From positions 1 to 28,367 of the forward strand of contig CAYYKK010000064.1 in the NCBI GenBank assembly GCA_964467935.1: a stretch of DNA of 28,367 nt. Direction: 5' to 3'. The notes under the pieces are model-generated. The model made no database searches. It saw only the letters and a program-made list of their open reading frames with translations, and was not told the DNA's origin. The translations under genes were made by a program, and so were the position numbers. This document shows, in pieces, positions 2,777 through 24,600 of the stretch (position 1 is its first letter; each line of letters opens with the position of its first letter). This DNA is from an uncultured Polyangiaceae bacterium. GTDB taxonomy: Bacteria > Myxococcota_A > Polyangia > Polyangiales > Polyangiaceae.

Positions 2777-3211
2777 ATGAGCGTCTACTACGTGAACGAG
2801 GCGGCGTTCGAGATCGACGATGCGGCGTTCGACGACCGGACGGTGCACGTGCTCGCGTCGCGCGAGGAGCTCGAGGGAGACGTCAGTCTGCTCGTCTCGA
2901 GGAGCCGCTACCGCCCCGGCGAGTCGCTCCTCGACAACGTGGCGCGCCACCTGGAGCGCGAGAGGCGTTCGTTCGCGGGATACCGCCAGCTCGACCTTCG
3001 TCAGCTCCGTGTCGACGGGGCGCCCGCGGTCGACGTCTCGACGCGATGGCGCGGCGCCGCCGGCCTCGTCTACCAACGCCAGGTCCACATCGGCCTCGAG
3101 CGCGTCGTGCTCTTGGTCGTCGCGACGGGATCGGTGGCGGAACGAGAGGCGTGCGACGCTCACGTCGAGCGCGCCTTGCGGACGTTTCGAGCACGCGAGG
3201 AGGGAACATGA
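2777..3211 (+). CDS. DUF1795-family protein (EagT6/EagR/DcrB-like effector-associated chaperone fold), 144 aa
   Basis: ATG at 2777 with SD gaggaggg 4 nt upstream. The track's longer 2696 start is N-terminal junk. MSVYYVNEAAFEIDDAAFDDRTVHVLA...SLLVSRSRYRPGESLLDNVARHL...FAGYRQLDLRQLRVDGAPAVDVSTRWRGAAGLVYQRQVHIGLERVVLLVVAT is colinear with the EagT6/DcrB pattern (x-NEG-f-LPD-W-D-sVNVL ... SLvISRD-lp-g-s ... GYqLLeqr-v-dGrpA ... QrQVyl-lgeR-lvLtaT). The stop overlaps the next gene's ATG (ATGA). Confidence 0.7.
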   Translation: MSVYYVNEAAFEIDDAAFDDRTVHVLASREELEGDVSLLVSRSRYRPGESLLDNVARHLERERRSFAGYRQLDLRQLRVDGAPAVDVSTRWRGAAGLVYQRQVHIGLERVVLLVVATGSVAEREACDAHVERALRTFRAREEGT

Positions 3212-4452
3212 CCGGAAAGCACCACGCCGCCCCGAAGGCGAAGCAGAAGGCGCCCGCGAAGAGCCCCGAGGCCAAGACGCCGCCGAAGAAGAAGAAGAGC
3301 ACGCGACACTTGGCGGTGAAGTACGAGAGCGACGGGATGAGCATCGCGGAGTTCGAGAAGCTCTCCGCGAAGAAGAAGGGCACGAGCGTCGAGGAGTGGC
3401 GCAAGAGCTCGCTCGACGCCTTGAAGAAGGCGGGCAAGGGCAGCGATCTCGCGACGGCCGCCAAGTTCCTGGAAGATCGGAGCTGGACCGACATGACGAA
3501 GAACCCGGAGGGCGACGATGGCGCGATGAAGAGCCTCCTCGACACCGCCGGCTATTCGAAGGCGAAGGGCGATCTGCCGACCCAGCGCGCCTTCTGGAAA
3601 TACCTCTACGACCGCAAGCTCGCGCTCGAGGCCGACTGGCAATACAAGACGAGCGTGTCGTTCGTGACGAAGGACGCGAAGGGCAAAGTCACCGAGCGCG
3701 CCTATGCGGACACGTCGAAGCTCCCCAGCCTCGCGAGGCACGCCGGCGCGACGAACCAGAAGCTCGGGTCGTTCATGAAGATCGTGACCGACAAGGATCC
3801 CGACAACCCGCTTCGTTATGCCCGAATCCTCGACAGCGGCACGCTCGAGCGATCGGAGGCCGAGGTCGGCATGGGCGCGGCGCGCAACCTCGGTGACGCG
3901 TCACCGAACCCCGCGATCGGCCCGACCGACTCGCTGCTCGAGAAGGCGGACGTGTCGACCGTCGCCGCCAATCCAGTGAGCCAAACCGAGTTTCCGATGG
4001 ATGGCATGCTCGACAACGAGCACACCCAATACGCCGGCTGGCTCGCCGAGAACAAGGGCGCGTCGTACGACGATGTCTCGACGAATACCGCTTTGTCGAA
4101 GACCATGGACAAGTACAAGGACGATAAGGCCTTTACCGACTACAAGAAGAAGGTCCAGGACGCGCTCAAGAAGCAGGCCGACGACGCCGCGGCCGGCGAC
4201 CGGGTCGAAAAGGGTGAGAAGACCCGCGTCTTCGTCGGCGAAGAGAAGCGCGAGCTCGCGACGAAGGGCGCCATCACGCAATCCGGCGATCAGCTCAAGG
4301 AGGGTGTCCGGGGCGTCTACGCGGGGAAGAACGGAAAGCCCGTCGCCGTGGTGGGCAGCGGGACGGTGCGCGGCAAGGGCGTGAAGAACGGCGCCGTCCA
4401 CGTCGAGGTGGGCGGCCCCGACACGACCGAAGAGGCGCGGCCTCCCCGCTGA
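3208..4452 (+). CDS. Hypothetical lysine-rich cytoplasmic protein (414 aa) with a histone-H1-like N-terminal tail containing SPKK/TPKK-type motifs
   Basis: ATG at 3208 is preceded by gaggaggg. The start overlaps the DUF1795 stop by 4 nt (ATGA), so the two are translationally coupled. N-terminus: MTGKHHAAPKAKQKAPAKSPEAKTPPKKKKSTRH. The rest is K/D/E-rich with no signal peptide and no TM. GC is visibly lower than the flanks (many aag/gac/tac runs). I recognise no catalytic motif. Confidence 0.6.
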   Translation: MTGKHHAAPKAKQKAPAKSPEAKTPPKKKKSTRHLAVKYESDGMSIAEFEKLSAKKKGTSVEEWRKSSLDALKKAGKGSDLATAAKFLEDRSWTDMTKNPEGDDGAMKSLLDTAGYSKAKGDLPTQRAFWKYLYDRKLALEADWQYKTSVSFVTKDAKGKVTERAYADTSKLPSLARHAGATNQKLGSFMKIVTDKDPDNPLRYARILDSGTLERSEAEVGMGAARNLGDASPNPAIGPTDSLLEKADVSTVAANPVSQTEFPMDGMLDNEHTQYAGWLAENKGASYDDVSTNTALSKTMDKYKDDKAFTDYKKKVQDALKKQADDAAAGDRVEKGEKTRVFVGEEKRELATKGAITQSGDQLKEGVRGVYAGKNGKPVAVVGSGTVRGKGVKNGAVHVEVGGPDTTEEARPPR

Positions 4453-4465
4453 GCACGGCGTCGGC

Positions 4466-7400
4466 TCAGGCGGGCTCGAACAGGATCGGCTCGCGCGCCA
4501 GGACGAACTGGCGGACGAGCTGCTGCGCGTCCGGCGAGAGATCGGCGAAGCGCGCGCCGAAGCCGGGCTGCGTCCACGGAGGCCCCTTGTCCCCCGCCGG
4601 ACGGCTCCACTCGACGACGCCGAGCGTCTCGAGCTCGACGCCGCCCGGGAGGCTCATGCGGAGCGCGACCGTCGACCCGAGGTTCGGCGCCGGACGATAG
4701 GACGCGACGAACACGCCGCCCTCGCGCACGACGTCGCCGTTCTTCCTCCAACGATAGAAGTTCGAGGCGCTCTCGAGATCGATCGCGGCGTCGTAGCGCG
4801 GGTGATTGCCCGCGACCGCCGCCGCCGCCTGACCGATGCGACCCTGGAGGCCCTTCACGAGGCTCGTCAGCTCGCCGAGCCGCTGCTCGACGCGCTGTAC
4901 GGCCGCGCCGACCTCCGGCCCCGTGCCCTGGGAGCGCGCTTGTGCAATGGCCTGTTGCGCTCTTGCAATGGCCTCGTTCTCCTCGGCGCTCGCGCCGGGT
5001 CGCTGCACGAGCGCGCCTTGCCCGTGACCAGGCGGAGGCGGCGCCGCGGCAGGACCGAACCCCGGCAGGCCGATCTGCCCCGGCGGTATCGTCGGCGGCC
5101 GCATCGCCGCGTCGCGCGCCATCTGCTGCGCGTGCTGCGCGACTTGCTGCGCTTGCTGGGCGACCTGTTGGGCCTGCTGCAGCCCCGCCTGCTGCGTCGC
5201 GACGACCTGCCTCGCCATCTGCTGCGCAGCGATCACCGCGTTCTGCGTCTCTCGCGCGACCTGCTCGGCCTCGCGCAGCGCCACCGCCTGCGCGGCTTGT
5301 TGACCGGCGATCTGCGCGCTCGCCTGCGACACCGCGCGCACCTGCGCGGTCGCCTCCGAGACCGCCTCGGAGAGCGCGGCGGCCTGCGCCTCGCTCTCGA
5401 GCCTCGCGTGCGCGCCCGCCTGCGCGAGGCTCTGCGCGAGCGCGTGAACCACGGGCGCGAGGGACGACTCCACCGTCCCGAGCTGCTGCGCGAGGAGCTC
5501 GGCGATCGCGGGGTCGCGCTCGACCTTCACCATCAGCTCCCTCGACGCGAGCTCGGCGAGCGCGGCGTGGAGCTTGTCGAGCTCCTTCGCGACCATCTCC
5601 GCGGGCGTCCTCTGCTGCGCGACCGCCTGGTTCAGCGTCTTGCCGATCCCGTCGAGCTGCGAGCCGAGCGTCCCGAGCGCGCCGGTGACGCGCGCGACGG
5701 GGTCGTCGTCCTTGCCGCCCATCATCTTCACGCGCACGAAGCCCTTCTTGATCTCCTCCCAGCGCCTCGCGCCCTCCTCGGAGAGCCGCCCGCGCATCGA
5801 CGCGAGCTTGAGGAGGTTCTGCTCCGCCCCGGTCGTCAGCGTCTGCGACTCGCCCGCGTAGTGATCGTCGATGAGCGAGTCGACCTCGGCCTCCGTGTGC
5901 GCGGCGACGATCTTCTCCGCGATCTTGTTCATGTTGCGGTAGCTGCCCTGGAGCTTGAACGGAGGCTCGGTGCGGTAGGCGTCGTCCTGCGACGCGGACG
6001 CGATGTACTCGAGATTGACCTGCAACAGCACCTTTTGAACGCGAGAGAGGCGCCTCAGCACCTCGACCATCTCGTTCACCTCGGCGGCCGAATAAGGGTA
6101 CGCGAGCTCGGAGACCGGGATGGCCTCGCCCTCCGACATGCGGATGATCTTGTGGATGTCGGCGGGCTCACGACCCGAGAGCGACGCGAGCGCCTTGTTG
6201 GAGGTGAGCGCGTTCTCGATGTAGCTGAGCGCGAAGAGGTGGTCCTTGCCCTCGAGGATGTCGCCGAGGTTGTACGTGTCGGCGCGGTTCGCGAGCATGT
6301 CGGGGATCTTGAACTTGTCGCCGCTCTCCGTGTACGGGTTGCCCGCCATCACGACGCAGAACTTCTTGCCGCGCAGATCGTAGGTCCGCGTCCGCTTCTT
6401 CCAGACGCCCTCGATGCGGCGCTGCGCGTCGCAGAGCGAGATGAACTTCTGCAAGAGCTCGGGGTGCGTGTGCTGGATGTCGTCGAGATAGAGCATCACG
6501 TTGTTGCCCATCTCGAGCGCGAGGTTGATCTTGTCGACCTCCTGACGCGCGGTCGCGTTCGGCGCCTCTTCGGGGTCGAGCGAGCGGACGTCGTGGCCGA
6601 GCGCGGGGCCGTTCACCTTCATGAAGATGAGGCCGAGCTTGTTCGCCACGTACTCCATGAGGGTCGTCTTGCCGTACCCGGGCGGCGAGATGAGCAGGAG
6701 CAGGCCCATCAGATCGGTGCGCTTCGAGTCGCCCGCGGCGCCCATCTGCTTGGCGAGGTTGTCGCCGACGAGCGGGAGGTACACCTCGTCGATGAGGCGG
6801 TTGCGGACGAACGACGAGAGGATGCGCGGCGTGAACTCGTCGAGCCGGAGGCGCCGGCGCTCGCGCTCGAGCAGCTCTTGCTTGGTCTTTCGGAACGCGC
6901 GGAAGCGCGGGACGCGCTCGACCATGGTCCGCTCGAGCCGACCGAGGAAGGCGTCGAGGCGGATCGTCAGCGACTGGTTCTGGATGAGCGGGTGCTGTCC
7001 GAGGAGCCCCGACGCGACCGACTCGACGACCGCGGACGAGGGTTCCCGCTCGATGCGCCGATCGGTCGCGACGAGCACGCACGCCTCGAGCAGCGCCTGC
7101 GCGTGGGAGGTGAGGTCGGCGTGACGAGCGACGAGCGCCTCGAGCCACGCTCTCACGAGGCCGAGGCGCTCGGCCGGGTGCTTCTCGAGGAAGCGGAGGT
7201 CCTCGTCGAAATCGCGTCGCGCGCTCGCGCGATCGATCTCGGACGAGAGCGCGTCCCTCAGCGTCGTGGCGGAGGCCGACGTGACGAAGCGCGGGCGCTC
7301 GGCCGAGAGCTCCTCGACGAGGTAGCGCGCCGAGACCCGCACGGTCGCGTCGTCGACGGGGACGCGCTCGCCGGCGACGACGATCTCGAAGCGGTGGAGC

Positions 7401-10400
7401 TCGGCGGCGACCCGCAGGTCGCGCTCCACCTCGCGCGCGAGATCGTCCTGCGCGCGTGACGACGCGAGGCGCTCCTTGAGGCGGCCGAAGCTCCGCGCGC
7501 GCCGCGAGAGCAGCCCGCGCTCGACCTCGCCGAGGCTCGCCCACGTGAGGCACGCGAGCGCGCGCGCGTCGCCGCCGTAGCGCAGCAGGCCCGAGGCCTT
7601 CTTCATCGCGACGAGCTTCTCGAGGATGATCGCCGCGTCGACGTCGTGCACGCCGCGCTCGTAGCCCTCCTCGTGTCGATCCTGCGCGTAGGCGCGCACG
7701 ACCTCGAGGATGCCGTTCGGGCGGGTCCCCGCCTCCGTGAGCGACGCGAGCGAGAGGCCGCCCTCGCCCTTCTCCGCGGCGAAGAACACGCTCGCGGCGA
7801 GGTACTCGCCTCGGTAGACGTCGGCGCTCTCCGACGGGAGCGATTGGTCCCACAGATCGCGCGACGCCTCGAGCAGCGGATCCTCGATGCGCTCGTAGAA
7901 GTCCGTGCCCGTGATGTGCGTGTATTGGACGTCGAGCCCCGCGCCCTCGTCGCGACGCGGGACGAGCGCGAGCTCGACGGGCTGCGTGTTGACGTTGAAG
8001 CGGTGCTTGCCGAGCTTGATGACGTCGGCGCCGCCGTCGAAGAGCTCGGTCTTGTCGCGGAGGGCGCGGAGCGCGTCCTGCCTCGCGCTCTTGAGCTTCG
8101 CTTCGACCTCGTCGCCCTTCACCGTGGCGCCGATCGCGAAGAGCTGCTGCGTCAGATCCCGGAGCTTCAGGATCATCGCGTCGGAGGCGAAGTACGTGTT
8201 GAGCTCGTCCGCCGAGGAGAGCGTGCGCGACTTGCGGACGACGCCGGCGATGATGCGCTCGGCCGCGCCCAGGATGTTCTGCGCGCGCTTCTGGCGCTCG
8301 TCGAGCAGCTGCTGACGCTTCGCCGCGATCGCCTCGGTCACCTCTTCGCGCTTCTGCGTGAGCTCGCCGATGAACTCGTCGAACTCGCTGAACTTGCCCT
8401 CGAGCTCCTCGAGCCCGAGGAGCAGGCGCGACAGCTCCGCGTCGCATTTCTCCGGCGTGTCGCAGAGCGCGAGCGCGCTCGTCACGCTCTGCCCGAAGAG
8501 CTTGAACTGCGCGACGAACTCGCCCTTGCCCTCGGCGCTCGAGAGCTCCTTCTTGCGGGCCGCGAGGGTCGCGCGCGCGCGGTTCAGCTGTGAGAAGGCC
8601 TCGCTGATGCCTTCGAGGATGCGCGTCCGCTGCGTCGGGTCCTCGATGTTGAGGCCGTTGATGACGTCCGAGAGGACCGTGAGCCCCTCGCCGACGCGAT
8701 CGACGTCCTCGCGGTGCGGCTTGAGCTCGGTCGCCTTCTTCGCGACGCCGACCTTGTCGACCACGTCGCCGAGGCGCTTCACGAGGGGCGCGAGCGCGGT
8801 CGGCGTCAGGAGGAACGCGACGCACGACTTCGAGACGAGCTCGAACTCCTCGACGACGCGCTTCTCGAGGCCGTCGACCTTCGCGAGGTCCATGTACCTC
8901 ATCTCCTTCAAGGTGATGAGCTGACCGCGTTGCTTGCGGAGATCGCTGAGCGCCCCCATGAACTCTTCGACCGAGCGCATGTCGTCGGGCCGGAGCCCGA
9001 GGAAGAGCTTGTCCTGCGAGTCCTCGGCGGCCGCGAGCGCCTCGGTCGCCCGCTTTCGAATGGCGGCGACCTTCTCGAACTCGTCGATGATGCTCTCGGC
9101 GGTCTTCTTGAGCGCCGAGATCGCCTCCGCGACGTTGCCCGCCTCTTCGTGCGCGACCCAATGGTGGGCGTCCATGATGCGGCGCGCCGTCGCGATGACG
9201 TCCTCGTAGCTCTGCCGCGTCGGCGTCTCCGACAGCGCGACACGCTGGAGCGTGAGCATCTCCGAGATGCCACGGACGAGCTCGGCGTTGCCGAGCTTCG
9301 CGAGGTACGAGCCGTCGGTCGGCGCGGCGGCGGCGAACTCCTGCGTGCAGAAGGGCGTCTGCCAGATCTGCATCGGGTGCACCTTGCTCGCCTCGTCCGT
9401 CAGGGTGCGGAACACGATCATCTTGCCGTCGTCGAAGACCGAGTACCCCTGGCAGAGCAGCGGGTTCTGCACCTCTTTGCGGATGAGGTTGTACGGCAGG
9501 AGCAGGTAGAAGCCGTCCTCGACGCGCTCGAAGACGTAGAGGATGTCCTCGCCGTTCGGCGACTTGATCGCCCGCCGAAACGTGAGGCCGCGGCTGTCGC
9601 CGTCGAAGACCTTGTACTCGCCCGTCCGCAGGTAGTAGCCGCCGGGGAAGATGATCCCCTGGTCCTCGGGGAGCGACACGCACGCCGACTCGATCGAGTC
9701 GATGCGGACGACGCCTTGGGTGCGCGTGTTGAACACGAGATACCGGTAGGCGTTCTCCCGGTACGGCTTGATCTTGAGCAGGATGAGCGCGCCGAGCTTG
9801 ACGTACGCGATGTCCGAGTCGTCGAGCGACTGGTTCGCGTCCTCGACCGGCTCGCGGTAGATCCCGCGACCGTCCTTCGTGTTGTTCTCGATCTTGACCG
9901 TGAGATCACCGCCCACGGTCTCGACGAACACCTCGTCGAGGATCGAAAAATGCGGGTTCTCACCGGGGACTTGATCGTCGCGCGTGCACGGCGTCCAGAC
10001 GAAGTCGTGCTGCTTCGGGGGCGCGAAGTCCTCCTCGCCGCGCGAGTCGATGAAGACGATGTTGCCGGCCTTGTCGATCCCCCAGCGGAAGATCTTCCGA
10101 TCGCTCGGCGACGCGCCGATCTGGAAGACGGCGAGCAGACGCGTGTCGGAGCGCTGGATCTGCAGCAGCTTCGCCTCACGCGTGTAGCGGTAGAGGTCCG
10201 AGAACTCCTTCACGAACGCCGGGTCGGCGAGGTAGTGGCCGGGCTCGATCGGCAGCTGCGGGAGCTCGAACGTCGTGTCCGTCTGACGGAGCTCGTGGAC
10301 GGCGAACACGTCCGAGACGAGCGTCTCCGTCTTGAGGCCGATGAAGACGTTGAAGCCGAAGAGCAGCTTGCCCTGCACCTGGCGGATGTCGCGCGGGACG

Positions 10401-10615
10401 CAGTTGTTCTCGGTCCGCACGCGCTCGGTCGCGAGGAGCGCGAGCTGCGAGGCGCCGAACACCTCGGTGCGGCGCGTGTTCAGCCACTCGGCTTTCTTGC
10501 CGAGCGCGGCCGCCTGCTCGATGAGGCGGCCGCGAATGACGTCGTAGCTGCCGCCTTCGAGCGCCTCGGCGCCCTCGGCGGGCGCCTCGCCGGCTGTCTT
10601 GTCGCCCTCGGCCAT
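4466..10615 (-). CDS. Giant multidomain protein (2049 aa): N-terminal beta-rich region, long helical regions, one MoxR/AAA_5-type AAA+ ATPase module, a Q/A-rich coiled-coil-like tract, and a C-terminal PilZ-like domain of the myxobacterial TIGR02266 type
   Basis: Walker A LLLISPPGYGKTTLMEY (revcomp of about 6670..6705). Walker B MLYLDDIQH (about 6470..6500). Sensor-1-like VVMAGNPYTESGDKFKIPDMLANRAD. Q/A repeats AQQAGLQQAQQVAQQAQQVAQHAQQMA. The C-terminus NFYRWRKNGDVVREGGVFVASYRPAPNLGSTVALRMSLPGGVELETLGVVEWSRP...GFGARFADLSPDAQQLVRQFV matches the GG-FV...LP-G....G-VVW...G-G-rF..L pattern of TIGR02266/PilZ-like domains. The ATG at 10615 lies 12 nt after the flotillin stop. Every long ORF antisense to it is a GC-frame artefact. 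Confidence 0.85.
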   Translation of the reverse strand: MAEGDKTAGEAPAEGAEALEGGSYDVIRGRLIEQAAALGKKAEWLNTRRTEVFGASQLALLATERVRTENNCVPRDIRQVQGKLLFGFNVFIGLKTETLVSDVFAVHELRQTDTTFELPQLPIEPGHYLADPAFVKEFSDLYRYTREAKLLQIQRSDTRLLAVFQIGASPSDRKIFRWGIDKAGNIVFIDSRGEEDFAPPKQHDFVWTPCTRDDQVPGENPHFSILDEVFVETVGGDLTVKIENNTKDGRGIYREPVEDANQSLDDSDIAYVKLGALILLKIKPYRENAYRYLVFNTRTQGVVRIDSIESACVSLPEDQGIIFPGGYYLRTGEYKVFDGDSRGLTFRRAIKSPNGEDILYVFERVEDGFYLLLPYNLIRKEVQNPLLCQGYSVFDDGKMIVFRTLTDEASKVHPMQIWQTPFCTQEFAAAAPTDGSYLAKLGNAELVRGISEMLTLQRVALSETPTRQSYEDVIATARRIMDAHHWVAHEEAGNVAEAISALKKTAESIIDEFEKVAAIRKRATEALAAAEDSQDKLFLGLRPDDMRSVEEFMGALSDLRKQRGQLITLKEMRYMDLAKVDGLEKRVVEEFELVSKSCVAFLLTPTALAPLVKRLGDVVDKVGVAKKATELKPHREDVDRVGEGLTVLSDVINGLNIEDPTQRTRILEGISEAFSQLNRARATLAARKKELSSAEGKGEFVAQFKLFGQSVTSALALCDTPEKCDAELSRLLLGLEELEGKFSEFDEFIGELTQKREEVTEAIAAKRQQLLDERQKRAQNILGAAERIIAGVVRKSRTLSSADELNTYFASDAMILKLRDLTQQLFAIGATVKGDEVEAKLKSARQDALRALRDKTELFDGGADVIKLGKHRFNVNTQPVELALVPRRDEGAGLDVQYTHITGTDFYERIEDPLLEASRDLWDQSLPSESADVYRGEYLAASVFFAAEKGEGGLSLASLTEAGTRPNGILEVVRAYAQDRHEEGYERGVHDVDAAIILEKLVAMKKASGLLRYGGDARALACLTWASLGEVERGLLSRRARSFGRLKERLASSRAQDDLAREVERDLRVAAELHRFEIVVAGERVPVDDATVRVSARYLVEELSAERPRFVTSASATTLRDALSSEIDRASARRDFDEDLRFLEKHPAERLGLVRAWLEALVARHADLTSHAQALLEACVLVATDRRIEREPSSAVVESVASGLLGQHPLIQNQSLTIRLDAFLGRLERTMVERVPRFRAFRKTKQELLERERRRLRLDEFTPRILSSFVRNRLIDEVYLPLVGDNLAKQMGAAGDSKRTDLMGLLLLISPPGYGKTTLMEYVANKLGLIFMKVNGPALGHDVRSLDPEEAPNATARQEVDKINLALEMGNNVMLYLDDIQHTHPELLQKFISLCDAQRRIEGVWKKRTRTYDLRGKKFCVVMAGNPYTESGDKFKIPDMLANRADTYNLGDILEGKDHLFALSYIENALTSNKALASLSGREPADIHKIIRMSEGEAIPVSELAYPYSAAEVNEMVEVLRRLSRVQKVLLQVNLEYIASASQDDAYRTEPPFKLQGSYRNMNKIAEKIVAAHTEAEVDSLIDDHYAGESQTLTTGAEQNLLKLASMRGRLSEEGARRWEEIKKGFVRVKMMGGKDDDPVARVTGALGTLGSQLDGIGKTLNQAVAQQRTPAEMVAKELDKLHAALAELASRELMVKVERDPAIAELLAQQLGTVESSLAPVVHALAQSLAQAGAHARLESEAQAAALSEAVSEATAQVRAVSQASAQIAGQQAAQAVALREAEQVARETQNAVIAAQQMARQVVATQQAGLQQAQQVAQQAQQVAQHAQQMARDAAMRPPTIPPGQIGLPGFGPAAAPPPPGHGQGALVQRPGASAEENEAIARAQQAIAQARSQGTGPEVGAAVQRVEQRLGELTSLVKGLQGRIGQAAAAVAGNHPRYDAAIDLESASNFYRWRKNGDVVREGGVFVASYRPAPNLGSTVALRMSLPGGVELETLGVVEWSRPAGDKGPPWTQPGFGARFADLSPDAQQLVRQFVLAREPILFEPA

Positions 10616-10627
10616 GACGGTGGAGCC

Positions 10628-12784
10628 TTACCGACCCGCCGACTTGAGCTGGTCGATCCCCATCTCCTTCGCGCGCGCGGCGAGGTCGGCGAGCTTCTTC
10701 CTCGCCGCGTCGTCGACGCTCGCGCCGCCCATGAGCCCCTGGATGACGCCCGAGAGGCTCGCGCCGTCGGCGCCGCCGAGGTGGTCGCCGAGCGCGGTGC
10801 GCAGCGTGTCGCTGTTCGCGAGCACGGTGTCGAACGACTGCCCGAGGCTCATCGCCTTCACGAACCGATCGAAGAACTGGCCGTCGCCGCCGACGATCTG
10901 GATCTTCGCCTCGCTGAAGGCCTCCGCGAGGATCTTCGACTGCTCCTGGGCGATGTCGCGCCTCGTCTTGAGCGTCTCCATCGCGACCTCGCGCTGGGCC
11001 TGCAGGCGGATGCGGAACTCCTCGTGCTCGCGGCTCGCCGGATCGAGCGCCTTCATCGCCGCGGCCTTCTCGGTGATGCCCGCGGCCTCCGCCATGAGCT
11101 TCTCGCGCGCGGCGTGCGCCTCGGCCATGCCGACCTTCTCGATCGCCTGCGCGTCGGCCTCGCGGACCTTCACCTTGGCGAGGCCCTTCTGCTCCTCGCC
11201 GTGCGCCTCGGCGAGCAGGCGCTCCTTCACGACGAGCGCCTCCGCGAGCCCCTTCTTCTCGATCGCGAGGGCCTCGGCCTCCGCGACGTGCACCTTGGCG
11301 AGGCCCTGCTTCTCCTCGCCCGTCGCGGTGGCCGTCAGCTTCTCGAGCGTCACGCGCGCCTCGACCATGCCCTGCTTCTCGATCGCGGCGGCGTCCGCCT
11401 CACGGACGCGGACCTGCGCGAGCCCCGCGGCCGCGTGCTCGGCCTGGACGCCCTCGGCGAGGCGGATCTTCGCGCGCGCGAGCTTGTCGGCGGCCTCGAG
11501 ATCCGCGTCGGCCGTGACGAGCTTCTCACGCGCGCGGAACTTCGCGCTCTCCTCGCTCGCCTCGGCGGCCTTCACCTGCTTCACGAGCGCCTCGGCGGCC
11601 TGCGCCTCGGCGTTGATCCGGACCGACTCCTTCAGGCGGTTCGCCTCGGCGACGACGCGCACGTCCTTGATGCGCTCCTCCTCCTCGGCGACGGTCTTGT
11701 CGACGACGATGCGCGCGCGCACCACGTCGGCGATCTCCTTCTTCTTGACCTCGATGTCCTTCTCTTTCGAGATGCGCTGCAGCTCGACCTCGCGCTCGCG
11801 CGAGAGCGCCTCGAGCTGCTGGGCCTTCTTCACGCGCTCGATCTCGACGGCGACCTCGCGCTCCTTGTTCTGGCGGGCGACGAGCACGGCGCGCTCCTTC
11901 GCCTCGTTGGCGACGAGCGACTCCTCCTCGTTCTTCGCGCGGAGGAGCAGCGTCTCCTTCTGCTCCTTCTCGGAGATGCGGGCGGCCTCGTTCTGCTCAC
12001 GCGCCTGGGCGACGGCGATCTCGCGCGCCTTCTTCGCCTCGGCCTCCGCGCGGCGCTGCTCGAACCGGAAAATCGCCTCGTCGGCGGTCAGGTTCTGGCT
12101 GCCCATCTCCATGCGCTCCTTCTGGCGGAGCTCGTTCGTCTTCACGTTCTGGATGACGGTGAGATCGGTGATCTTCCGAATGCCCTCGGAGTCCATGATG
12201 TTGTCTTTGTCGAGGGCCTCGACCGGCGTCTGCTCGAGGTAGTCGATCGCGCAGTCGTCGAGGTGGAAGCCGTTCAGATCGGTGCCGATCACCTTGATGA
12301 TCTCGTCCTTGAAGAGCTGCCGCTCCTTGTAGAGATCCTCGAAGTTCATCCCCTTGCCGACCGTCTTCAGCGCCTCGGAGAACTTCGCCGCGAAGAGCTC
12401 CTGGATGACGCGCTGATCGCTCGCGCGCGCGCAGCCGATCGCCTGCGCGACCTTGAGCACGCTGTCCGCCGTCTTGTTCACGCGCACGAAGAACGTGACC
12501 TCGATGTCCGCGCGGATGTTGTCCTTGCAGATGAGGCCGTCCTTGTTGCGGCGATCGATCGCGATCGTCTTGACGGAGATGTCCATCATCTCGGCGCGGT
12601 TGATGATCGGGTAGACGACCGCGCCCGTGAAGAACACCTGCGGCTCGTTCTTCATCGTGTTCACGATGAGGGCCGTGCCCTGATCGACCTGCCGGTAGAA
12701 CTTCGCGACGATGATGATGACCCCGAAGACGACGAGGGCGATGACGCCGACGACGATCAAGATCAAGACGAGCTGATCGGGCAT
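10628..12784 (-). CDS. Flotillin (SPFH/band-7 family, FloT/YqiK-like), 718 aa
   Basis: N-terminal TM anchor LVLILIVVGVIALVVFGVIIIVAKFY. The SPFH core runs QGTALIVNTMKNEPQVFFTGAVVYPIINRAEMMDISVKTIAIDRRNKDGLICKDNIRADIEVTFFVRV...DLYKERQLFKDEIIKVIG. The C-terminal half is E/A-rich with flotillin-type repeats (KQGLAKVHVAEAEALAIEKKGLAEA..EEQKGLAKVKVREADAQAIEKVGMAEA). I chose the ATG at 12784 because a perfect AAGGAG SD sits 9 nt upstream. The track's 12802 start is an upstream GTG. Confidence 0.9.
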   Translation of the reverse strand: MPDQLVLILIVVGVIALVVFGVIIIVAKFYRQVDQGTALIVNTMKNEPQVFFTGAVVYPIINRAEMMDISVKTIAIDRRNKDGLICKDNIRADIEVTFFVRVNKTADSVLKVAQAIGCARASDQRVIQELFAAKFSEALKTVGKGMNFEDLYKERQLFKDEIIKVIGTDLNGFHLDDCAIDYLEQTPVEALDKDNIMDSEGIRKITDLTVIQNVKTNELRQKERMEMGSQNLTADEAIFRFEQRRAEAEAKKAREIAVAQAREQNEAARISEKEQKETLLLRAKNEEESLVANEAKERAVLVARQNKEREVAVEIERVKKAQQLEALSREREVELQRISKEKDIEVKKKEIADVVRARIVVDKTVAEEEERIKDVRVVAEANRLKESVRINAEAQAAEALVKQVKAAEASEESAKFRAREKLVTADADLEAADKLARAKIRLAEGVQAEHAAAGLAQVRVREADAAAIEKQGMVEARVTLEKLTATATGEEKQGLAKVHVAEAEALAIEKKGLAEALVVKERLLAEAHGEEQKGLAKVKVREADAQAIEKVGMAEAHAAREKLMAEAAGITEKAAAMKALDPASREHEEFRIRLQAQREVAMETLKTRRDIAQEQSKILAEAFSEAKIQIVGGDGQFFDRFVKAMSLGQSFDTVLANSDTLRTALGDHLGGADGASLSGVIQGLMGGASVDDAARKKLADLAARAKEMGIDQLKSAGR

Positions 12785-12900
12785 GTGAGCGGGCTCCTTC
12801 ACGAAGGCGCGGGGAGACCGAGGCCCCCCGTGAGCGACGGGGAGAGTACATCAACTGAGACGGCCGAACAGCGCGACGGCGCGCTCGCGGTGGGCACGGC

Positions 12901-13791
12901 TCAGCGCGTCGTTTCTCGCTTGCGATCCGCGTCGACCGGCTCCGCCTCGACCTCCATCCTCGGGGCCGTCGTCGCGATGCGAGGCCGCGGGGTCGAGCCG
13001 GGAAGGTCGGGCATGCGCTCGATCGAGAAGCCCTCGGTCTCCGGATCGTAGTCGACGATCACGCACTGATCGCCCTTCTTGAGGCCCGCGCCCTCTTCGG
13101 CGCGCACCTGGAGCGTGAGACCGGCGCCGCCGTCGGCGAACGTGGCCTGCCCGAAGCGCGGCGTCACGGTGCCGGTCGACACGACCACGATCTTGCCGAG
13201 GAGGTCCTGGTGCTTCGACGCGCCCTTCTTCTCGAAGACACCGCCGAGCGGGCGGATCGCGAGCGAGGTGAGGAGCAGAGAGACCAGCGAGGCGCCGAGG
13301 AAGATCGGCAGACCGACGAGCCATCCGACGTTCCCGGTGGGCGTCAGCGTGCGAACCACGAGGCTGGAGCCGAGGAAGCCGAACGCGGCGAAGAGGGTGA
13401 GGACGACCGTGATGGGCGCGCGACGGAGGTGGAGCGCCGCGATGAAGCTCGCGAAGATCCCCTCGCCCGCAGCGTCCGTCGCGCCGTCGACGGCCCCGTC
13501 CGCGGCGCCCTTGGCGACGCCCTCGAGCGCTTGATCCGAACCGTGCAGGCCGCCGTGGAGCGCCGCGTCGGCCGCGCCGTCGAGCGCGCTGTCGGCGCCG
13601 CCGTGCAGCACGCCGTCCGCGGCGCCGTCGAGCGCGCCCTTCGCGACGCCCTCGATCGCGTGATCGCCGCCGCCGAGGAAATCGAGGTCGAGCGCGCCCA
13701 CGAGGACGAAGAGCCAATAGAGGACGGTCACGGCGAGCAGGACCGTGAACACGACCGTGGGGAAGCTGATGATGAGGTGGATGAGAGCCAT
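12901..13791 (-). CDS. NfeD/YqiJ-like membrane protein with a C-terminal OB-fold, the usual flotillin operon partner
   Basis: MALIHLIISFPTVVFTVLLAVTVLYWLFVLVGALDLDF is the TM start. An internal D/G/A/H-rich tandem repeat follows (ALDGAADGVLHGG / ALDGAADAALHGG; EGVAKGALDGA / EGVAKGAADGA). More TM helices, then a C-terminal OB-like segment KIVVVSTGTVTPRFGQATFADGGAGLTLQVRAEEGAGLKKGDQCVIVDYDPETEGFSIERM. An SD-like gagggg sits 7 nt upstream of the ATG. The gene lies directly upstream of flotillin on the same strand, as in E. coli yqiJ-yqiK and Bacillus nfeD-floT. Confidence 0.8.
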   Translation of the reverse strand: MALIHLIISFPTVVFTVLLAVTVLYWLFVLVGALDLDFLGGGDHAIEGVAKGALDGAADGVLHGGADSALDGAADAALHGGLHGSDQALEGVAKGAADGAVDGATDAAGEGIFASFIAALHLRRAPITVVLTLFAAFGFLGSSLVVRTLTPTGNVGWLVGLPIFLGASLVSLLLTSLAIRPLGGVFEKKGASKHQDLLGKIVVVSTGTVTPRFGQATFADGGAGLTLQVRAEEGAGLKKGDQCVIVDYDPETEGFSIERMPDLPGSTPRPRIATTAPRMEVEAEPVDADRKRETTR

Positions 13792-13851
13792 GGGCGCACC
13801 CCTCGCGCGCGTCGATCCGGAGGTTACGCCGGTCTCGCGCGGCGAGGCCGA

Positions 13852-14574
13852 CTATCCGTGTCGGGTCTGCGGCGAGGCGCGGCTCGGGATCGTCCGGTGT
13901 CCCTCGCCGTGCGACCAGAGCCACTTCGCGAGCTCCATGGCGCGGCTCCCGTCGGCGACGCCCCGCACCCAATCACACTCGCCCGGCGTGATCGACGTGA
14001 GCACGACCAGCCTCGACTCGCATCCGTCGACGGCCGCGAGCAGCGTCTGGGCGTCGCGGCCGAACGTCGTCGTCGGCGAGAGGGGCATTCCCGCGAGCGC
14101 ACCCACGCTGCCGTCCTCGAGCACCAAGTGCCGAAGGACGGGGTCCGGCGGGAGCAGCTGCGTCACCATGCCGAAGCGCTCGATGAGGTCGAGGAGTCGA
14201 AGCTCGTCGAGGACGTAGCAGGCGGCGCACCAGAGGAGCGCGGGCACGACCCAAGAGCGAGCGAGCTCGTCGGACGAGAGCGCGAGCGCTGCCTGTTCGA
14301 GCTCGATGCCGAGCTCGAACCCGAGCGGCGCCTTTCCCGGGCCGTGCATCGACGCATCGAACGGGTGCGAGAGCCCTTCGGTGACGAAGAGCACACCTCG
14401 CTCGCGCCGGACCAGACGTATTCGCCCCAGGGCCTGGCTGGGCCAAGGCACGAGGGTCTCGCCGATGCGCTGCGGTACGACGGCTCCCACGACCCGCTCC
14501 TCCAATTCGCCGAGGTCGCGCAGGCTCCGTTCGGACTCTTTCTCGAGGGCTTGGGTGATCGACTCCGTCGCCAC
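13852..14574 (-). CDS. SUFU (suppressor-of-fused) family domain protein; bacterial SUFU domains are known as polymorphic-toxin immunity domains. Start is uncertain
   Basis: ...FVTEGLSHPFDASMHGPGKAPLGFELGIELEQ...WVVPALLWCAACYVLDELRLL...RHLVLEDGSVGALAGMPLSPTTTFGRDAQTLLAAVDGCESRLVVLTSITPGECDWVRGVADGSRAMELAKWL is colinear with the SUFU core (fGLSdL...GpsGfGFELTfRL...L..lARYV...qHmLLtED...TPFG...L.IVGvCteEl.....W.G.G.LEL), recalled from memory. The frame is open up to 15279, but that upstream stretch is antisense to the neighbouring lipoprotein gene. I chose the GTG at 14574 (M/V-ATESITQALEKE...). An ATG at 14721 would overlap the lipoprotein ATG head-to-head. The gene ends 60 nt upstream of the NfeD start. 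Confidence 0.5.
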   Translation of the reverse strand: MATESITQALEKESERSLRDLGELEERVVGAVVPQRIGETLVPWPSQALGRIRLVRRERGVLFVTEGLSHPFDASMHGPGKAPLGFELGIELEQAALALSSDELARSWVVPALLWCAACYVLDELRLLDLIERFGMVTQLLPPDPVLRHLVLEDGSVGALAGMPLSPTTTFGRDAQTLLAAVDGCESRLVVLTSITPGECDWVRGVADGSRAMELAKWLWSHGEGHRTIPSRASPQTRHG

Positions 14575-14719
14575 GCTTTCGAGCGTATCGGGGCCCGGTG
14601 GAGCTGGGTAGGGCCGCCGAGCGAAGCCTCCGCGAAGGAATGGGTACCTCGCCCACCCTTGGACCTCTTCCGCGCTCGTGTTTCCATCTTCCTCATCCTT
14701 CCTGCCTACGAGGTGTCCC

Positions 14720-15448
14720 ATGAAGCTTGCGCTCCCTTCCCTCGCCGTCTCCGCCTGTCTCGTCGTCTCCCTGACCCCGTCGCTGCTCGGCTGTAGCGGA
14801 GGCGGCGGCGCCGGGGGGGCCGGTGGAGGGACGACCTCGGCCACGACGGGCACGGGCACGACGACGGGCACCGGCTCCACCTCGTCGAGCGCGACCACGA
14901 CGTCATCCTCGGGCTCCACCACCTCGAGCTCGTCCACTGGCGGTGGCATGGCGCAGGCCGAGTGCGCGACCGCGGCGGACTGCAAGCTCGTCGACGACTG
15001 CTGCAACTGCGAGGCGATCCCGAAGACCAAGATGGATCCGCAGTGCAGCCAGCAGTGCCTGCAGAGCGCGTGCATGGCGCTCGGCGTGACGCCCACCGTC
15101 GATTGCCAGGCAGGGCGCTGCATCGCCGCGTTCGACTGCGACGGCTCCAAGGTGACGTGCCTCACGCCGCAGCCCGTGTGTCCCGCCGGAGAGACGAACC
15201 TGGTCGACGGGCTCTGCTGGACGCAGCAATGCGTGCCGGTGACCCAATGCGCGTTCGTCGACGACTGCGCGGCGTGCACGGCGACGCAGGCCTGCGTCTT
15301 TTACGGTGGCGGCATCATGAAGCGACATTGCGTCGACGTGCCGCCCGAGTGCAATGGCACGCCCTCCTGCGCGTGCATGGGGCAGATGATCTGCGGCAAC
15401 ATCCCCTGCGGCGGCACGGGCAACCAGCTCGATTGCCAGATCCCGTAG
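14720..15448 (+). CDS. Secreted cysteine-rich lipoprotein with a G/T/S-rich linker
   Basis: MKLALPSLAVSACLVVSLTPSLLGC carries a signal peptide and a lipobox L-L-G-C. An AGGTG SD lies 4 nt upstream of the ATG. Next comes GGGGAGGAGGGTTSATTGTGTTTGTGSTSSSATTTSSSGSTTSSSSTGGG, then a roughly 150-aa domain with about 28 Cys (CKLVDDCCNCEAIP...CQAGRCIAAFDCDG...CAACTATQACVFYGG...CNGTPSCACMGQMICGNIPCGG). Confidence 0.7.
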   Translation: MKLALPSLAVSACLVVSLTPSLLGCSGGGGAGGAGGGTTSATTGTGTTTGTGSTSSSATTTSSSGSTTSSSSTGGGMAQAECATAADCKLVDDCCNCEAIPKTKMDPQCSQQCLQSACMALGVTPTVDCQAGRCIAAFDCDGSKVTCLTPQPVCPAGETNLVDGLCWTQQCVPVTQCAFVDDCAACTATQACVFYGGGIMKRHCVDVPPECNGTPSCACMGQMICGNIPCGGTGNQLDCQIP

Positions 15449-15487
15449 CGATCGCCCCCTTGCTGATGCGGTGGTGGGGGATCGGGC

Positions 15488-15528
15488 TTGACACTTCGTC
15501 AGGAAACGTTCATTGACACTTCGTCAGG
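15488..15528. promoter_or_regulatory. Tandem 16-bp direct repeat TTGACACTTCGTCAGG x2 (15488..15503 and 15513..15528), each holding a TGAC-N5-GTCA inverted motif. Candidate TetR operator or promoter element, 8 nt upstream of the tetR-family ATG
   Basis: Read directly: cTTGACACTTCGTCAGGaaacgttcaTTGACACTTCGTCAGGtttcccgATG. TTGACA is also a perfect -35 hexamer. Binding and function are inferred. Confidence 0.4.
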
Positions 15529-15535
15529 TTTCCCG

Positions 15536-21036: not shown

Positions 21037-21668
21037 GCAAACGCAATGGCTTCTTTGCATTCGAGCCTTCGCGACCGCGTCTGCTGCATCCGTCGCGCCG
21101 AGGCATCGTCGTCTTCTGCCTGTTGGGCCTCGGCGCGTGCAACACGGGTGTCTTCGCCGGGAACGACTGCGTGGACGCGGCCCAGCGCCTCGCGTCCAAG
21201 TTGCAATCATGCGGACTGTCCCAGCCGTCGGAGGCGACGGCCTCGGGCGCGGGTGGAGCGGCGCCCGTGTGTCCTCCGGACGAAGGTCAGCGGGCCAAGG
21301 CGATCGCGGACTGCACCGACGCCGCGACGTGTGAGGCGGTGATCGGAACCGACAGGGCCGGCGCCCTCCAGCTCGCTCAGTGCGTGGCGGCGGCACAACA
21401 AATGACCTCCAGCACCGGCCTGGGCGGCGTCGGGGCGAGCTCCTCGACCGGCGCGCCAAAGAGCATCGGCCCGTGCAACATTTGCGGCACCTGCAACAAC
21501 AGCGATGTCCAATGCAATTTCCCAGAGTTCGGGACGGACATCCGCGTGAACAAGGCGATGCCTTATTGGTGTGTCACGAAGGGCTGCACATTCATCGAGG
21601 CCGCGAGCGCCAGCGACCCTACCCTCGTCAACAATTGCGGCTCGGTCATCCATCAGCTGTGTCAATGA
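21033..21668 (+). CDS. Cysteine-rich lipoprotein, 211 aa
   Basis: The ATG at 21033 overlaps the upstream stop (ATGA). MSKRNGFFAFEPSRPRLLHPSRRGIVVFCLLGLGAC carries a lipobox L-G-A-C. Many Cys follow (NDCVDAAQ...SCG...PVCPPDEG...CTDAATCEAV...PCNICGTCNNSDVQCNF...WCVTKGCTF...NNCGSV..LCQ). The 3' end overlaps the kinase gene's 3' end by 23 bp (convergent). Confidence 0.6.
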   Translation: MSKRNGFFAFEPSRPRLLHPSRRGIVVFCLLGLGACNTGVFAGNDCVDAAQRLASKLQSCGLSQPSEATASGAGGAAPVCPPDEGQRAKAIADCTDAATCEAVIGTDRAGALQLAQCVAAAQQMTSSTGLGGVGASSSTGAPKSIGPCNICGTCNNSDVQCNFPEFGTDIRVNKAMPYWCVTKGCTFIEAASASDPTLVNNCGSVIHQLCQ

Positions 21669-24600
21669 CGGGCAGCGCCAGCCTCGCGAGCCCTGCGCGC
21701 GCCTCGACGGCGTCGAGGCGCATGTCGAGCTGCTCGGCGAGAGCGAGGGCTCGGCGAAGGTGCTTGTCAGCCTTCCTCGGTGTCCCGCGCGCGAGCGCGA
21801 GCTGCCCCGAGTAGAGCCAATACCTCGGTCTCGAGGCCGCGAACGAGGGCCCGAATCGGCGCAGCACCGCGATGGCGCGCTCGACCCAGCCGAGCGTGTC
21901 GTCCGAGGACTCTTTCGAGCCCGCGGCGAGCGAGAGGCCAGCCTGCGCGGCGCCCATGCAACCGTGCACTGCGTGGTAGACGCCCGGGTCTGCGCGCTCA
22001 CCGATCTCGACGGCCTCACGGAGCTTTTCGTGCGCGTCGCTCGCCCGGCCGACGCGGCTCGACGCGAGCGCGACAATTCCCGCCACCATCGTTCGGTCGG
22101 CGAGCATGGTCTCCTGCAAGACCTCCGTGGCCGCGCTGCACACGGCGAGGGCCTGCTCGGGCGCGCCGAGCGCGAGGAGCATCCGCGCCTTGTCGCAGAG
22201 CGCCCATAGCTGGGTCTGGGTGTCGCCGCGCGACAGGGCGGACGCGTACCCTTCGTCGGCGAGAGAGATCGCGCTCGCCGGGTCCCCGCGCATCGACTCG
22301 ATCTCGCAGAGGATGCTCAGGCACTCCTCGCGCCTCCGAAGCTCTCCGCAGCGCGTCGCGAATTCGAGACCCCATTTCGCCATGTGGGTCGCGCGTTCCC
22401 ATTCGGCCATTCCACAGCGATAGTAGGCTTCGACCATTCCCACCCAGGCGCAGCTCGATGGATCCTCCGAGATCGCAGCGAGCTCTTGGGATCTCCGCAA
22501 CATCCGATCGGCGAGGCCGTGGAGCGGGACGAGGCCGAGCATGGCCCCGAAAGTGGCATTTCCACGCGCCATGAGCGCTGGAGACCCGGACCGAGCGCCG
22601 AGCTCGCGCAGCCTCGTGGCCGTATGCACCAATGCGAGGTTGTCGGAGAGCAAGAAGCAGAGCCCCTCGGTCGAGCCGTAGATGTCCGCGATTCGACGAA
22701 GGCCTTCTTCGGTCGCGTCCCTACGAGGATTCTTGAAGAACCCCTTCGCCAAGCTCACGAGGGTCCGTCCTGCGAGAGCCGCACGGGACCTCGGAAAGGG
22801 GCTCCCCAGCAGCTGAAGGGCCCGCTCGTGGTGCTCCCTGCTCTCGTCGATGAGACCCACCGCATTCAATGCGGTGCCAAGCTCTCGCTCCAAGCCGGCC
22901 CGGATGGAGTCGGAGACGCCTCGATGCGCTGCCGCGACGAGTGCGGCCCGGAGCAACCTCGCGGCCTCGTGGTTCGCATAGCTCGCCGACGCTGCCTGCG
23001 CCGCGGCCTGCAGGTGGGGGAATGCCGACGCATGCTCGGCGGCCTCCATGTAATGAATGCCAATCTGGCCCGAGAGGCGGGCGCGCAGGGGGGCGCGCTC
23101 CTCCGTCTCGAGCTCTCGCTCCATCGCGACGGCCGCCGCCTTGTGGAGTCGGCCCCTGCTCTCGGGGCCGATGAGCGCGTAGACCTGCTCTCGGAGGTTG
23201 TCGTGTTCGAAGCGCCAACCTTCGCTCGCGAGCTCGAGCACACTCCGCGTGCGCAGCTCGTCGAGGCCTCGACCGAGCACGCTCGCGTCGAATGAGCCCG
23301 TCTTGGCGATGAGCGGCTCTGCGACCTGCCCCGAGAGGACGGCGACGCCCCCGGCGCCCGCGCGCGCCTCTTCCGACAGCGTCTTCAAACGCCGTGACAC
23401 GAGCTCCGCGATCGGCACCTGGCCCTCGGGAAGCACGCCGCCGGAGCGGACTTCCCAGCGTCCCTCGTCGCTGCGCCGCAGCGTGCCGGCTTCGAGGGCA
23501 GCGCGCAGATACTCCGCGACGAAGAAGGGATTTCCTCGTGACGCCCGGGCCAAGGACGACACGAGGGCGGGTGGACTGTCGGAGGCGCCGAGCATCATGG
23601 CGGCCATCGTGGGGATCACGCTCGTGTCGAGCCGCGAGAGCGGGACTTGGTCCAACCCGGGAGTGCCGAGGAGCCGATCGATCCTCGGATCGGCTTCGTC
23701 CCGCCGTGCCGCGCCGAGGATCCGAATGGGCACTCTCGCGAAGCGTTGGGTTCGAGCGACCTGCTCGACCCACGCGACCGTGACGTCGTCCGCCCATTGC
23801 AAGTCATCCAGGACGAGGAGGAGCGGGTTGGCGTCGGCCATGGCCGCGAGCGTCTCGGAGAGGGCCGCGAGGAGGCGCTGCCGAGCCGCCTCGGGGAGAA
23901 GGGGTGGGGGCAGGGGCTCCGCGTCGTCAGCCAAGTCGCCGAATTCGGGCAGGACCGCTCCGAGGACGCGGGCGCGGCCTCCGAGCAATCGCCGCGACTC
24001 GTCCACTCCCCACTCGCGAACGCGCATTGCGATCGTCGCGAGCGGGCCGATCATCGACTCGAGCGGCGTCGCCGCGGGGCGCCCGAAGCTGTGACCGCTC
24101 ATCCCCGCGCTCGATCCCGTGAGCACTCGGAGTCCCCTGCGCGAAGCGGCGCGAACGATCTCCAAGGCCAGCCGGCTCTTGCCGATGCCGCTCGGGCCCG
24201 ACAGCACGGTGACGCCGCCTTCCCCCTTCTCCAACGCGTCGAGAGACACGCCGAGCTGGCGGATCGTCTCCTCGCGACCGACGAGCCCCGGTCGGCAGAA
24301 GTGCGGCCGTGGGCGCCACTCGGCGTGGGAGGGCGGTCGTCCACCGAGGCGCACCAGGGCTCTCACCACGTCGTCCGCGTAGGCCGGGCGCGAGGTCGGG
24401 TCCTTGGCGAGCAAGCGCAAAACGAGCGCGTCGAGGTCCTTGGGTACCGCCGGCGCGCGCTCGGACGGCGGGCTCGGGGGATGGTCCAGGTGAGCACGCA
24501 AGACGGCTCGGACGGTGCCGTCGAAAGGCGGGTGCCCGGTGAGCAGCTCGTGGAGGATGCAGCCGAGCGAGTAGAGGTCTGCGCGACCGTCCACGACGGA

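Follow-up and report, generated by a model that had tools for sequence, protein, structure and literature searches.

Bacterial flotillins and NfeD proteins are widespread, and their function is unclear. The closest described relative of the system considered here is an operon from the comparative genomics of Ravi et al. (mSystems 2024, PMC11237479; preprint 2020). Passages of that study describe the operon with and without PspA: a dyad of CesT/Tir (YjfI) and PspA is joined to three genes, which include a band-7/flotillin protein, an AAA+ protein, and a protein of the YqiJ/YuaF type with three transmembrane (TM) segments. In the same passages, a PLD hydrolase is sometimes included, the versions without PspA are said to be widely distributed, and a comparison to Vps4 is drawn for the associations of PspA/Snf7 with AAA+ proteins. 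Here, we analyze a stretch of 28,367 nucleotides (nt) from an uncultured Polyangiaceae bacterium (contig CAYYKK010000064.1; this whole stretch is the window). Its minus strand encodes an NfeD-like protein, a flotillin-like protein, and a giant AAA+ ATPase of 2,049 amino acids (aa), with a gene that had been called SUFU-like ahead of them. This locus is almost certainly an abbreviated form of the operon (YqiJ-YqiK-giant ATPase). It is one more case of a described, mechanistically unsolved membrane-stress system.

What appears to be the long form of the operon is also known from Pseudomonas aeruginosa, as the biofilm-associated bacABCDEF cluster (PA3732-PA3727 / PA14_16140-16200). There, the short NfeD is BacC, the flotillin (PaFlo3) is BacD, and BacE is encoded downstream of BacD; the window's NfeD, flotillin, and ATPase appear to be the counterparts of BacC, BacD, and BacE. 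A mutant in PA3731, which is PspA-like, was impaired in biofilm formation, swarming, and virulence, and the protein was induced by osmotic shock (Macé et al. 2008, PMC2587700). Reverse transcription-PCR placed bacA to bacF (PA14_16140-16200) on one transcript, including the junction between bacD and PA14_16190, and BacB to BacF co-accumulated in a bacA mutant (Wallart et al. 2024, PMC10948618). PA3728 has been listed as an "ATPase" that is recurrently mutated in cystic fibrosis isolates (PMC8190622). A preliminary description of the window had presented a giant AAA+ protein as an undescribed partner of SPFH scaffolds. This does not stand: the association is already in the passages of Ravi et al. 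cited above, and read-through from bacD into PA14_16190 has been seen.

To compare gene neighborhoods, we scanned one genome per species, with the QGSYRNM motif of the giant protein as a pattern. At least 588 genomes contain a relative of the giant gene, and we kept the best 80 loci. Neighbors were sought with hidden Markov models (HMMs; a jackhmmer family in the case of NfeD) in all six-frame open reading frames (ORFs). Where at least 2.5 kb of upstream sequence was present, the giant gene was immediately preceded by a YqiK-like gene (same strand, less than 600 nt upstream) in 71 of 77 loci, and a YqiJ-like gene lay ahead of the YqiK-like gene in 71 of 72. These loci are from Myxococcota, Actinomycetota (Nonomuraea, Actinoplanes, Nocardiopsis, Amycolatopsis, and others), Planctomycetota, Acidobacteriota, and Gammaproteobacteria (Pseudomonas, Xenorhabdus, Stenotrophomonas, Lysobacter, Methylomonas, and others), along with one betaproteobacterium and one zetaproteobacterium. 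This three-gene linkage greatly exceeds what chance would give and extends over at least six phyla: where the ATPase occurs, the other two proteins are almost always encoded with it. The giant gene is a genuine third cistron of a YqiJ/YqiK-type operon, as had been proposed from the window's sequence; a lack of co-conservation, which the preliminary description had named as a refuting outcome, is decisively contradicted by these counts.

Six loci fell outside of the 71. In L062, the flotillin gene abuts the match to the giant gene, and the giant ORF is called about 1 kb downstream; in L084, the gap between flotillin and ATPase is about 680 nt. In L072 (6479-9517), genes for an alpha/beta-hydrolase, a NYN protein, and a Pol-beta nucleotidyltransferase are inserted between flotillin and ATPase, and in L079 (8030-9930), two genes of the PD-(D/E)XK transposase family are inserted there. 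L011 has an insertion of about 6 kb. In L025, no flotillin gene was found within 10 kb of the ATPase. We considered whether the non-adjacent loci reveal an alternative partner, and rejected this: the two that we examined, L072 and L079, show insertions. The inserts in these two loci are mobile or toxin-antitoxin-like genes, and they lie exactly at the flotillin/ATPase junction.

A few other loci have unusual features. In Labilithrix (L004), a 512-aa protein with a weak trypsin-like match is encoded between the NfeD and flotillin genes (3794-5332), and a 115-aa ORF lies between the flotillin and ATPase genes (7634-7981). L013 (CAZQBW010000056.1) is labeled "uncultured Clostridia bacterium" and contains the full three-gene module, with an ATPase that is 55% identical to the window's. 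Because this identity is similar to that of Myxococcota loci, L013 may be a mis-binned myxobacterial contig or the result of a recent transfer.

Both the long and the abbreviated forms of the operon, as given in the passages of Ravi et al., recur in the best 80 loci. The long form was found in 18 proteobacterial loci, with DUF2170 (YjfI) and PspA/IM30 upstream and a PLD-like or rhomboid gene downstream. Four Pseudomonas loci (L040, L050, L055, and L060) have the order YjfI-PspA-YqiJ-YqiK-giant ATPase. HMMs built from the 18 loci did not find PspA, DUF2170, or PLD among the window's ORFs at E <= 1, and without PspA and DUF2170, the window has the abbreviated form. The Pseudomonas fluorescens SBW25 megaplasmid pQBR103 (L088; 425 kb; NC_009444.1, 86461-103536) carries genes for a YqiJ-like protein, an SPFH protein, and a "DNA repair ATPase"; directly upstream of this three-gene module are DUF2491, DUF350, DUF1190, and glutathionylspermidine-synthase-family genes (yjfKLMC-like). 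Judging by the passages of Ravi et al. on these classes, this string combines both of their PspA-linked operon classes.

The distribution of the ATPase family within genera is patchy, and it occurs on 13 plasmid records in PLSDB, including pQBR103 and plasmids of Streptomyces, Deinococcus, and Hymenobacter. A PLD-like gene lies downstream in 9 loci, and PA3728-PA3732 were upregulated in every sample of P. aeruginosa that had been infected with phage (PMC12041424). These observations would fit a horizontally spread anti-phage or abortive-infection system in which the AAA+ protein would detect infection and have its effect at the membrane, with a PLD effector in some cases. We consider this unlikely: PADLOC gave no meaningful match, the other neighbors in the window are ordinary signaling and peptidase genes, and a generic Psp-type envelope-stress response would also account for induction by phage. 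Also, the reported phenotypes involve biofilms, swarming, virulence, and osmotic shock (PMC2587700 and PMC10948618).

The two smaller proteins of the module had to be identified by direct comparison to YqiJ and YqiK of Escherichia coli MG1655, because scans of the flotillin-like, NfeD-like, and SUFU-like proteins against Pfam, NCBIfam, and PADLOC yielded zero matches. The NfeD-like protein aligns with YqiJ over residues 94-246, which include TM segments 2 and 3 and the C terminus (BLASTP, 9e-7). It has three predicted TM segments, an acidic loop that is rich in Gly, Ala, Asp, and His, and a C-terminal soluble domain, and its sequence marks it as a short NfeD of the YqiJ/YuaF type. The loop, which lies between TM segments 1 and 2 (13432..13689; residues ~35-120), is quasi-repetitive (for example, GALDGAADGVLHGGADSALDGAADAALHGG), and YqiJ of E. 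coli has a shorter His/Asp-rich stretch at the equivalent place. The loop possibly binds metal.

The flotillin-like protein is similar to E. coli YqiK (BLASTP, 2e-25), with an alignment that reaches residue 457. When its family was compared to the SPFH domain of YqiK with hhalign, residues 23-218 aligned to 26-222 (99.5% probability, E = 4.6e-23). In the translation, a hydrophobic segment at residues ~5-28 forms an N-terminal membrane anchor; it is followed by the SPFH domain and then by a long Glu/Ala-rich coiled coil with repeats. Source annotations describe its homologs as YqiK or "flotillin family." Against Pfam's Band_7 model (PF01145), the protein had no match even at E <= 10, and neither single-sequence nor profile searches of PDB sequences with its family found a flotillin. 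Some homologs at 65% identity do match PF01145, and we attribute the missing match to sequence divergence and not to the absence of the fold. The comparisons identify this protein as a YqiK-type flotillin. The yqiJK-like pair named in the preliminary description is thus confirmed by homology to both E. coli proteins.

By sequence, the giant protein is unambiguously a full-length member of the DUF3686-DUF7902-AAA family. It matches PF12458 (DUF3686) with E = 9.7e-195 across profile positions 2-448 of 448 and PF25472 (DUF7902) with E = 1.7e-23. AAA (27.2 bits, versus a cutoff of 21.2) and AAA_5 both exceed their gathering scores, and they describe one AAA+ module. There are more than 5,484 homologs, which form 961 clusters at 50% identity. 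When we aligned 15 family members, at identities down to 34%, the conserved core stopped near residue 1630.

NCBI's name for this family is "DNA repair ATPase," and Pfam's is "ATPase involved in DNA repair." Around the P-loop of the giant protein there are weak matches to RuvB_N and RuvB, both by sequence and with Foldseek, and this similarity may be where the name came from. If the name were correct, the protein would act on DNA much as RuvB does, and its linkage to flotillin would be incidental. This is extremely unlikely: a Pfam scan of the giant protein found no DNA-binding domain, we did not find any literature on DUF3686/PF12458 or any that backs the name, and the gene is linked to genes for membrane proteins. 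For these reasons, "DNA repair ATPase" is probably a misnomer, and it would be worthwhile to correct it in Pfam and NCBI.

In an AlphaFold2 model of residues 1-700 (mean predicted local distance difference test score [pLDDT], 83.7), a helix at residues 24-53 is followed by a beta-propeller at residues 59-419 and by a region at residues 425-700 that is all-helical according to DSSP. Foldseek related the propeller to WD40 (DCAF1), Kelch, and prolyl-oligopeptidase propellers and to the terminal domain and linker of the clathrin heavy chain. A second model, of residues 1201-1700 (mean pLDDT, 71), has an AAA+ fold in which sensor 1 is preceded by a beta-hairpin. Foldseek matched this fold to RuvB and NorQ; the closest structures are the MoxR-family remodelers NorQ and CbbQ. 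Besides the Walker motifs (Table 1), the AAA+ core contains the pre-sensor-1 beta-hairpin, the sensor-1 residue N1426, and R1444. SPPGYGKTT, N1426, R1444, and QGSYRNM are invariant in the 15 aligned family members. The predicted fold supports placing the module in the MoxR/midasin/dynein group, with its pre-sensor-1 hairpin, so the label "MoxR-type" is upheld at the level of the fold.

The C-terminal tail of the giant protein matches two PilZ models, both below their curated cutoffs: PF07238 (E = 5.7e-4; 20.6 bits, versus 22.5) and the myxobacterial TIGR02266 (E = 5.8e-11; 42.4 bits, versus 68.7). The tail is present in ~100 of the 120 closest homologs of the giant protein and in 10 of 84 loci, all of them Polyangiales (Polyangiaceae, Sorangium, Chondromyces, and Labilithrix). 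Among the 84 loci, it is absent from Myxococcus, Corallococcus, Archangium, Kofleriaceae, Nannocystis, and all of the non-myxobacterial loci. PilZ domains contact cyclic di-GMP (c-di-GMP) through the motifs RxxxR and (D/N)xSxxG. In an alignment of 16 C termini, RxxxR is reduced to a single Arg, within xxxPR(F/Y)D (PRFD), and (D/N)xSxxG is replaced by DVVxxGG, with Val instead of Ser.

It had been suggested that this tail makes the operon responsive to a nucleotide second messenger. In that case, the proteins would be a flotillin-anchored machine that is controlled by c-di-GMP or another second messenger. The matches to the PilZ models and the conservation of the tail in ~100 Polyangiales homologs are in keeping with this, but both matches are subthreshold and both c-di-GMP motifs are degenerate. 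As a general feature, the response is ruled improbable by the tail's restriction to Polyangiales: with just 10 of 84 loci, the tail cannot belong to the core mechanism. Overall, we view control by a second messenger as quite unlikely. Given that both motifs are degenerate, the tail is probably a lineage-specific, non-canonical PilZ-like module, most likely for protein interaction or localization rather than for sensing c-di-GMP.

The gene upstream of NfeD does not belong to the conserved unit. The preliminary description put a SUFU-like gene at the head of the operon. As to the name, the window's protein does not match PF05076, and a profile search of the PDB with it found no match. It has merely 13 close homologs, all without a Pfam domain; just two of the 14 family members match PF05076, and weakly (best E = 3.4e-4). 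That it is SUFU-like is a faint possibility. As to the place at the head of the operon, no homolog was found in the other 84 loci of the giant gene, among them L007, the closest relative, with 86% identity between its giant protein and the window's. In L085 and L087, homologs adjoin, and lie upstream of, a cluster with an HMA gene and a copper P-type ATPase gene. We also asked whether the gene after the homolog in these relatives encodes an NfeD, and rejected this: an unrelated gene is there. L085 also has, near its SUFU-like homolog, a gene for a Pkinase-AAA_16-TPR protein that is similar to one in the window (21646..25173, minus strand), which encodes a fusion of 1,175 aa that joins a Ser/Thr protein kinase with a STAND-type AAA_16 NTPase and TPR repeats.

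The case for a four-gene operon, with the SUFU-like protein functioning in the flotillin machine (for instance, as a regulator or an immunity-like partner), is the position of its gene: the NfeD gene follows on the same strand after a gap of 60 nt, and this gap contains no terminator-like site. Its absence from the 84 loci and its different conserved context in L085 and L087 make this very unlikely. We conclude that the SUFU-like gene is outside of the conserved unit and is a chance local neighbor.

Within the window, which is ~70% G+C, the four ORFs follow one another head to tail along the minus strand from 4466 to 14574 (Table 1), and we reproduced both their coordinates and the gaps between them: 60 nt between the SUFU-like and NfeD genes, 116 nt between NfeD and flotillin, and 12 nt between flotillin and the giant gene. 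The GTG start of the SUFU-like ORF is consistent with the N termini of its 13 homologs. At the shortest junction, an AAGG motif straddles the TAA stop codon of the flotillin gene: it comprises the final two bases of the stop and the initial two bases of the gap, and it lies 10 nt before the ATG of the giant gene. The 116-nt spacer does not fold better than shuffled sequence (z = 0.41), so its structure is ordinary. A terminator between the flotillin and giant genes would speak against an operon; a scan of the minus strand from 3800 to 15800 found no terminator-like or sigma-70 sites. A scan of the whole window against Rfam gave zero matches. Because a sigma-54 promoter was proposed for the bac cluster of Pseudomonas, we also scanned the window for such sites; matches were rarer than expected by chance, and none were near the operon.

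On the upstream side, the minus-strand cluster is bounded by a divergent lipoprotein gene (14720..15448, plus strand), which begins 145 nt from the GTG of the SUFU-like gene and encodes a lipobox (MKLALPSLAVSACLVVSLTPSLLGC) followed by a Gly/Pro-rich linker. The region shared by these two genes is the sole candidate promoter space upstream of the cluster. On the downstream side, a Pfam-negative ORF of 468 aa (3046..4452, plus strand) is convergent with the giant gene. The two stop codons are 13 nt apart, so a conventional terminator would not fit between them.

TABLE 1 Features of the minus-strand cluster, in window coordinates (residue numbers refer to the encoded protein)
Feature	Position	Strand	Details
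SUFU-like ORF	13852..14574	minus	240 aa, GTG start
NfeD-like ORF	12901..13791	minus	296 aa, ATG start
NfeD/flotillin spacer	12785..12900	minus	116 nt, contains GAAGGAG ribosome-binding site
Flotillin ORF	10628..12784	minus	718 aa, ATG start at 12784 after GAAGGAG ribosome-binding site
Flotillin/giant junction	10616..10627	minus	12 nt, from flotillin TAA stop to giant ATG
Giant ATPase ORF	4466..10615	minus	2,049 aa, ATG start
Predicted beta-propeller	9359..10441	minus	residues 59-419, in DUF3686; helix at residues 24-53 ahead of it
Long helical region	6719..9358	minus	residues ~420-1299, with conserved motifs in the family alignment
DUF7902	8546..8797	minus	residues 607-690, Pfam match
AAA+ core	6236..6718	minus	residues ~1300-1460
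Walker A, SPPGYGKTT	6662..6688	minus	
Walker B, LYLDDIQH	6470..6493	minus	residues 1375-1382
Helical lid and C-terminal part of family core	5726..6235	minus	residues ~1461-1630, with QGSYRNM motif
Gln/Ala/Pro-rich lineage-specific linker	4859..5725	minus	residues ~1631-1919, unaligned in distant family members
Degenerate PilZ-like domain, TIGR02266-type	4469..4858	minus	residues 1920-2049 (130 aa)

What might the three proteins do together? We propose that the flotillin would be held in the membrane by its N-terminal segment, after which there are Lys and Arg residues, and that, together with the three-TM NfeD, it would form a scaffold or cage at the inner membrane, on the side of the cytoplasm. 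The soluble ATPase could dock on this scaffold via its propeller and helical arm, or on PspA polymers where these are present. When the membrane or envelope is under stress, the MoxR-like AAA+ ring would then spend ATP on the assembly, disassembly, or remodeling of the scaffold, of PspA polymers, or of client proteins. In Polyangiales, the ATPase would have gained a degenerate PilZ-like domain.

Several points weigh against this mechanism. In the Walker B motif, Asp-Asp replaces the usual Asp-Glu in all 15 of the aligned family members, which may mean that ATP hydrolysis is slow and switch-like, as opposed to the processive hydrolysis of a remodeler. The sequence of the giant protein shows no evident aromatic pore loop. 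Canonical MoxR ATPases act with VWA partners, and there is no VWA family among the conserved neighbors in the 84 loci. In the literature, we found neither a substrate of the ATPase nor a physical interaction with flotillin, NfeD, or PspA. In P. aeruginosa, deleting the flotillin PaFlo3 (PA14_16180) reduced biofilm formation by ~20% and gave no stress phenotype (PMC13086221). That BacE/PA3728 is a DUF3686 protein is something that we infer from annotation and from how the genes are ordered in other Pseudomonas loci. Finally, the linkage counts describe the best 80 of at least 588 loci.

With these points in mind, we hold the remodeling mechanism, in which the ATPase acts on the flotillin/NfeD scaffold during membrane stress, as a tentative proposal that could be right. 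The explanation as a whole, which combines the identification of the operon, this mechanism, the PilZ-like addition, and a chance SUFU-like neighbor, seems to us reasonably likely. A more specific version is doubtful: the DUF3686 propeller/MoxR-like ATPase might be a dedicated ATP-driven factor for assembling or disassembling flotillin-NfeD cages and, where they are present, PspA polymers, with the degenerate PilZ-like domain tying it to a lineage-specific partner or signal in Polyangiales. If the ATPase does turn out to be a cage assembly/disassembly factor, it would be a bacterial counterpart of Vps4/ESCRT-III and the first known energy-consuming remodeler of an SPFH scaffold.

Of the clues available so far, the strongest one for active remodeling of these scaffolds is that a single flotillin subfamily is accompanied by a giant ATPase in at least six phyla. 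Because this clue was already present in comparative genomics and in the literature on the bac genes of Pseudomonas, the window adds no new concept. What is new here is the quantified tightness of the linkage; the assignment of folds within the ATPase (a propeller, a helical arm, and a MoxR-like ring with an invariant DD Walker B); and the degenerate PilZ-like tail of the Polyangiales versions.

Compared to the operon in the passages of Ravi et al., the window lacks PspA, DUF2170, and PLD, and it adds the Polyangiales-specific Gln/Ala-rich linker and the degenerate PilZ-like domain. Compared to bacABCDEF, it lacks BacA, BacB, and BacF, and whereas a sigma-54 promoter has been proposed for the Pseudomonas cluster, the window's operon has no sigma-54-like site nearby. 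The yqiJK genes of E. coli and the yuaFG (floT) genes of Bacillus subtilis (SPFH2 group; Hinderhofer et al. 2009, PMC2636767) encode a homologous NfeD and flotillin in the same order. Unlike in the window, no ATPase gene follows yqiK in E. coli. Also, the window's flotillin is longer (718 aa, versus 553 aa for YqiK) and too divergent for PF01145.

For the ATPase, the comparison is to other AAA+ proteins. Relative to the MoxR-family proteins NorQ, CbbQ, and RavA, the window's protein has no VWA partner gene, it has DD in Walker B, and its AAA+ module is embedded in a protein of 2,049 aa with a propeller and a long helical arm. The comparison to Vps4/ESCRT-III and PspA/Vipp1 is a functional analogy: in the long operon, an AAA+ protein is genomically coupled to PspA, which belongs to the ESCRT-III superfamily. 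However, Vps4 is of the classical AAA+ clade, and the window's ATPase is from a different clade and has no MIT domain, nor is there a PspA in the window. By analogy, the best mechanistic precedent would be HflK/C-FtsH, which likewise combines an SPFH-family scaffold with an AAA+ ATPase: the SPFH cage encloses and regulates the AAA+ machine. HflK/C is on the periplasmic side and FtsH is an AAA+ protease of the classical clade that is embedded in the membrane, whereas the window's ATPase is soluble and MoxR-like, lacks a protease domain, and shares an operon with its putative scaffold.

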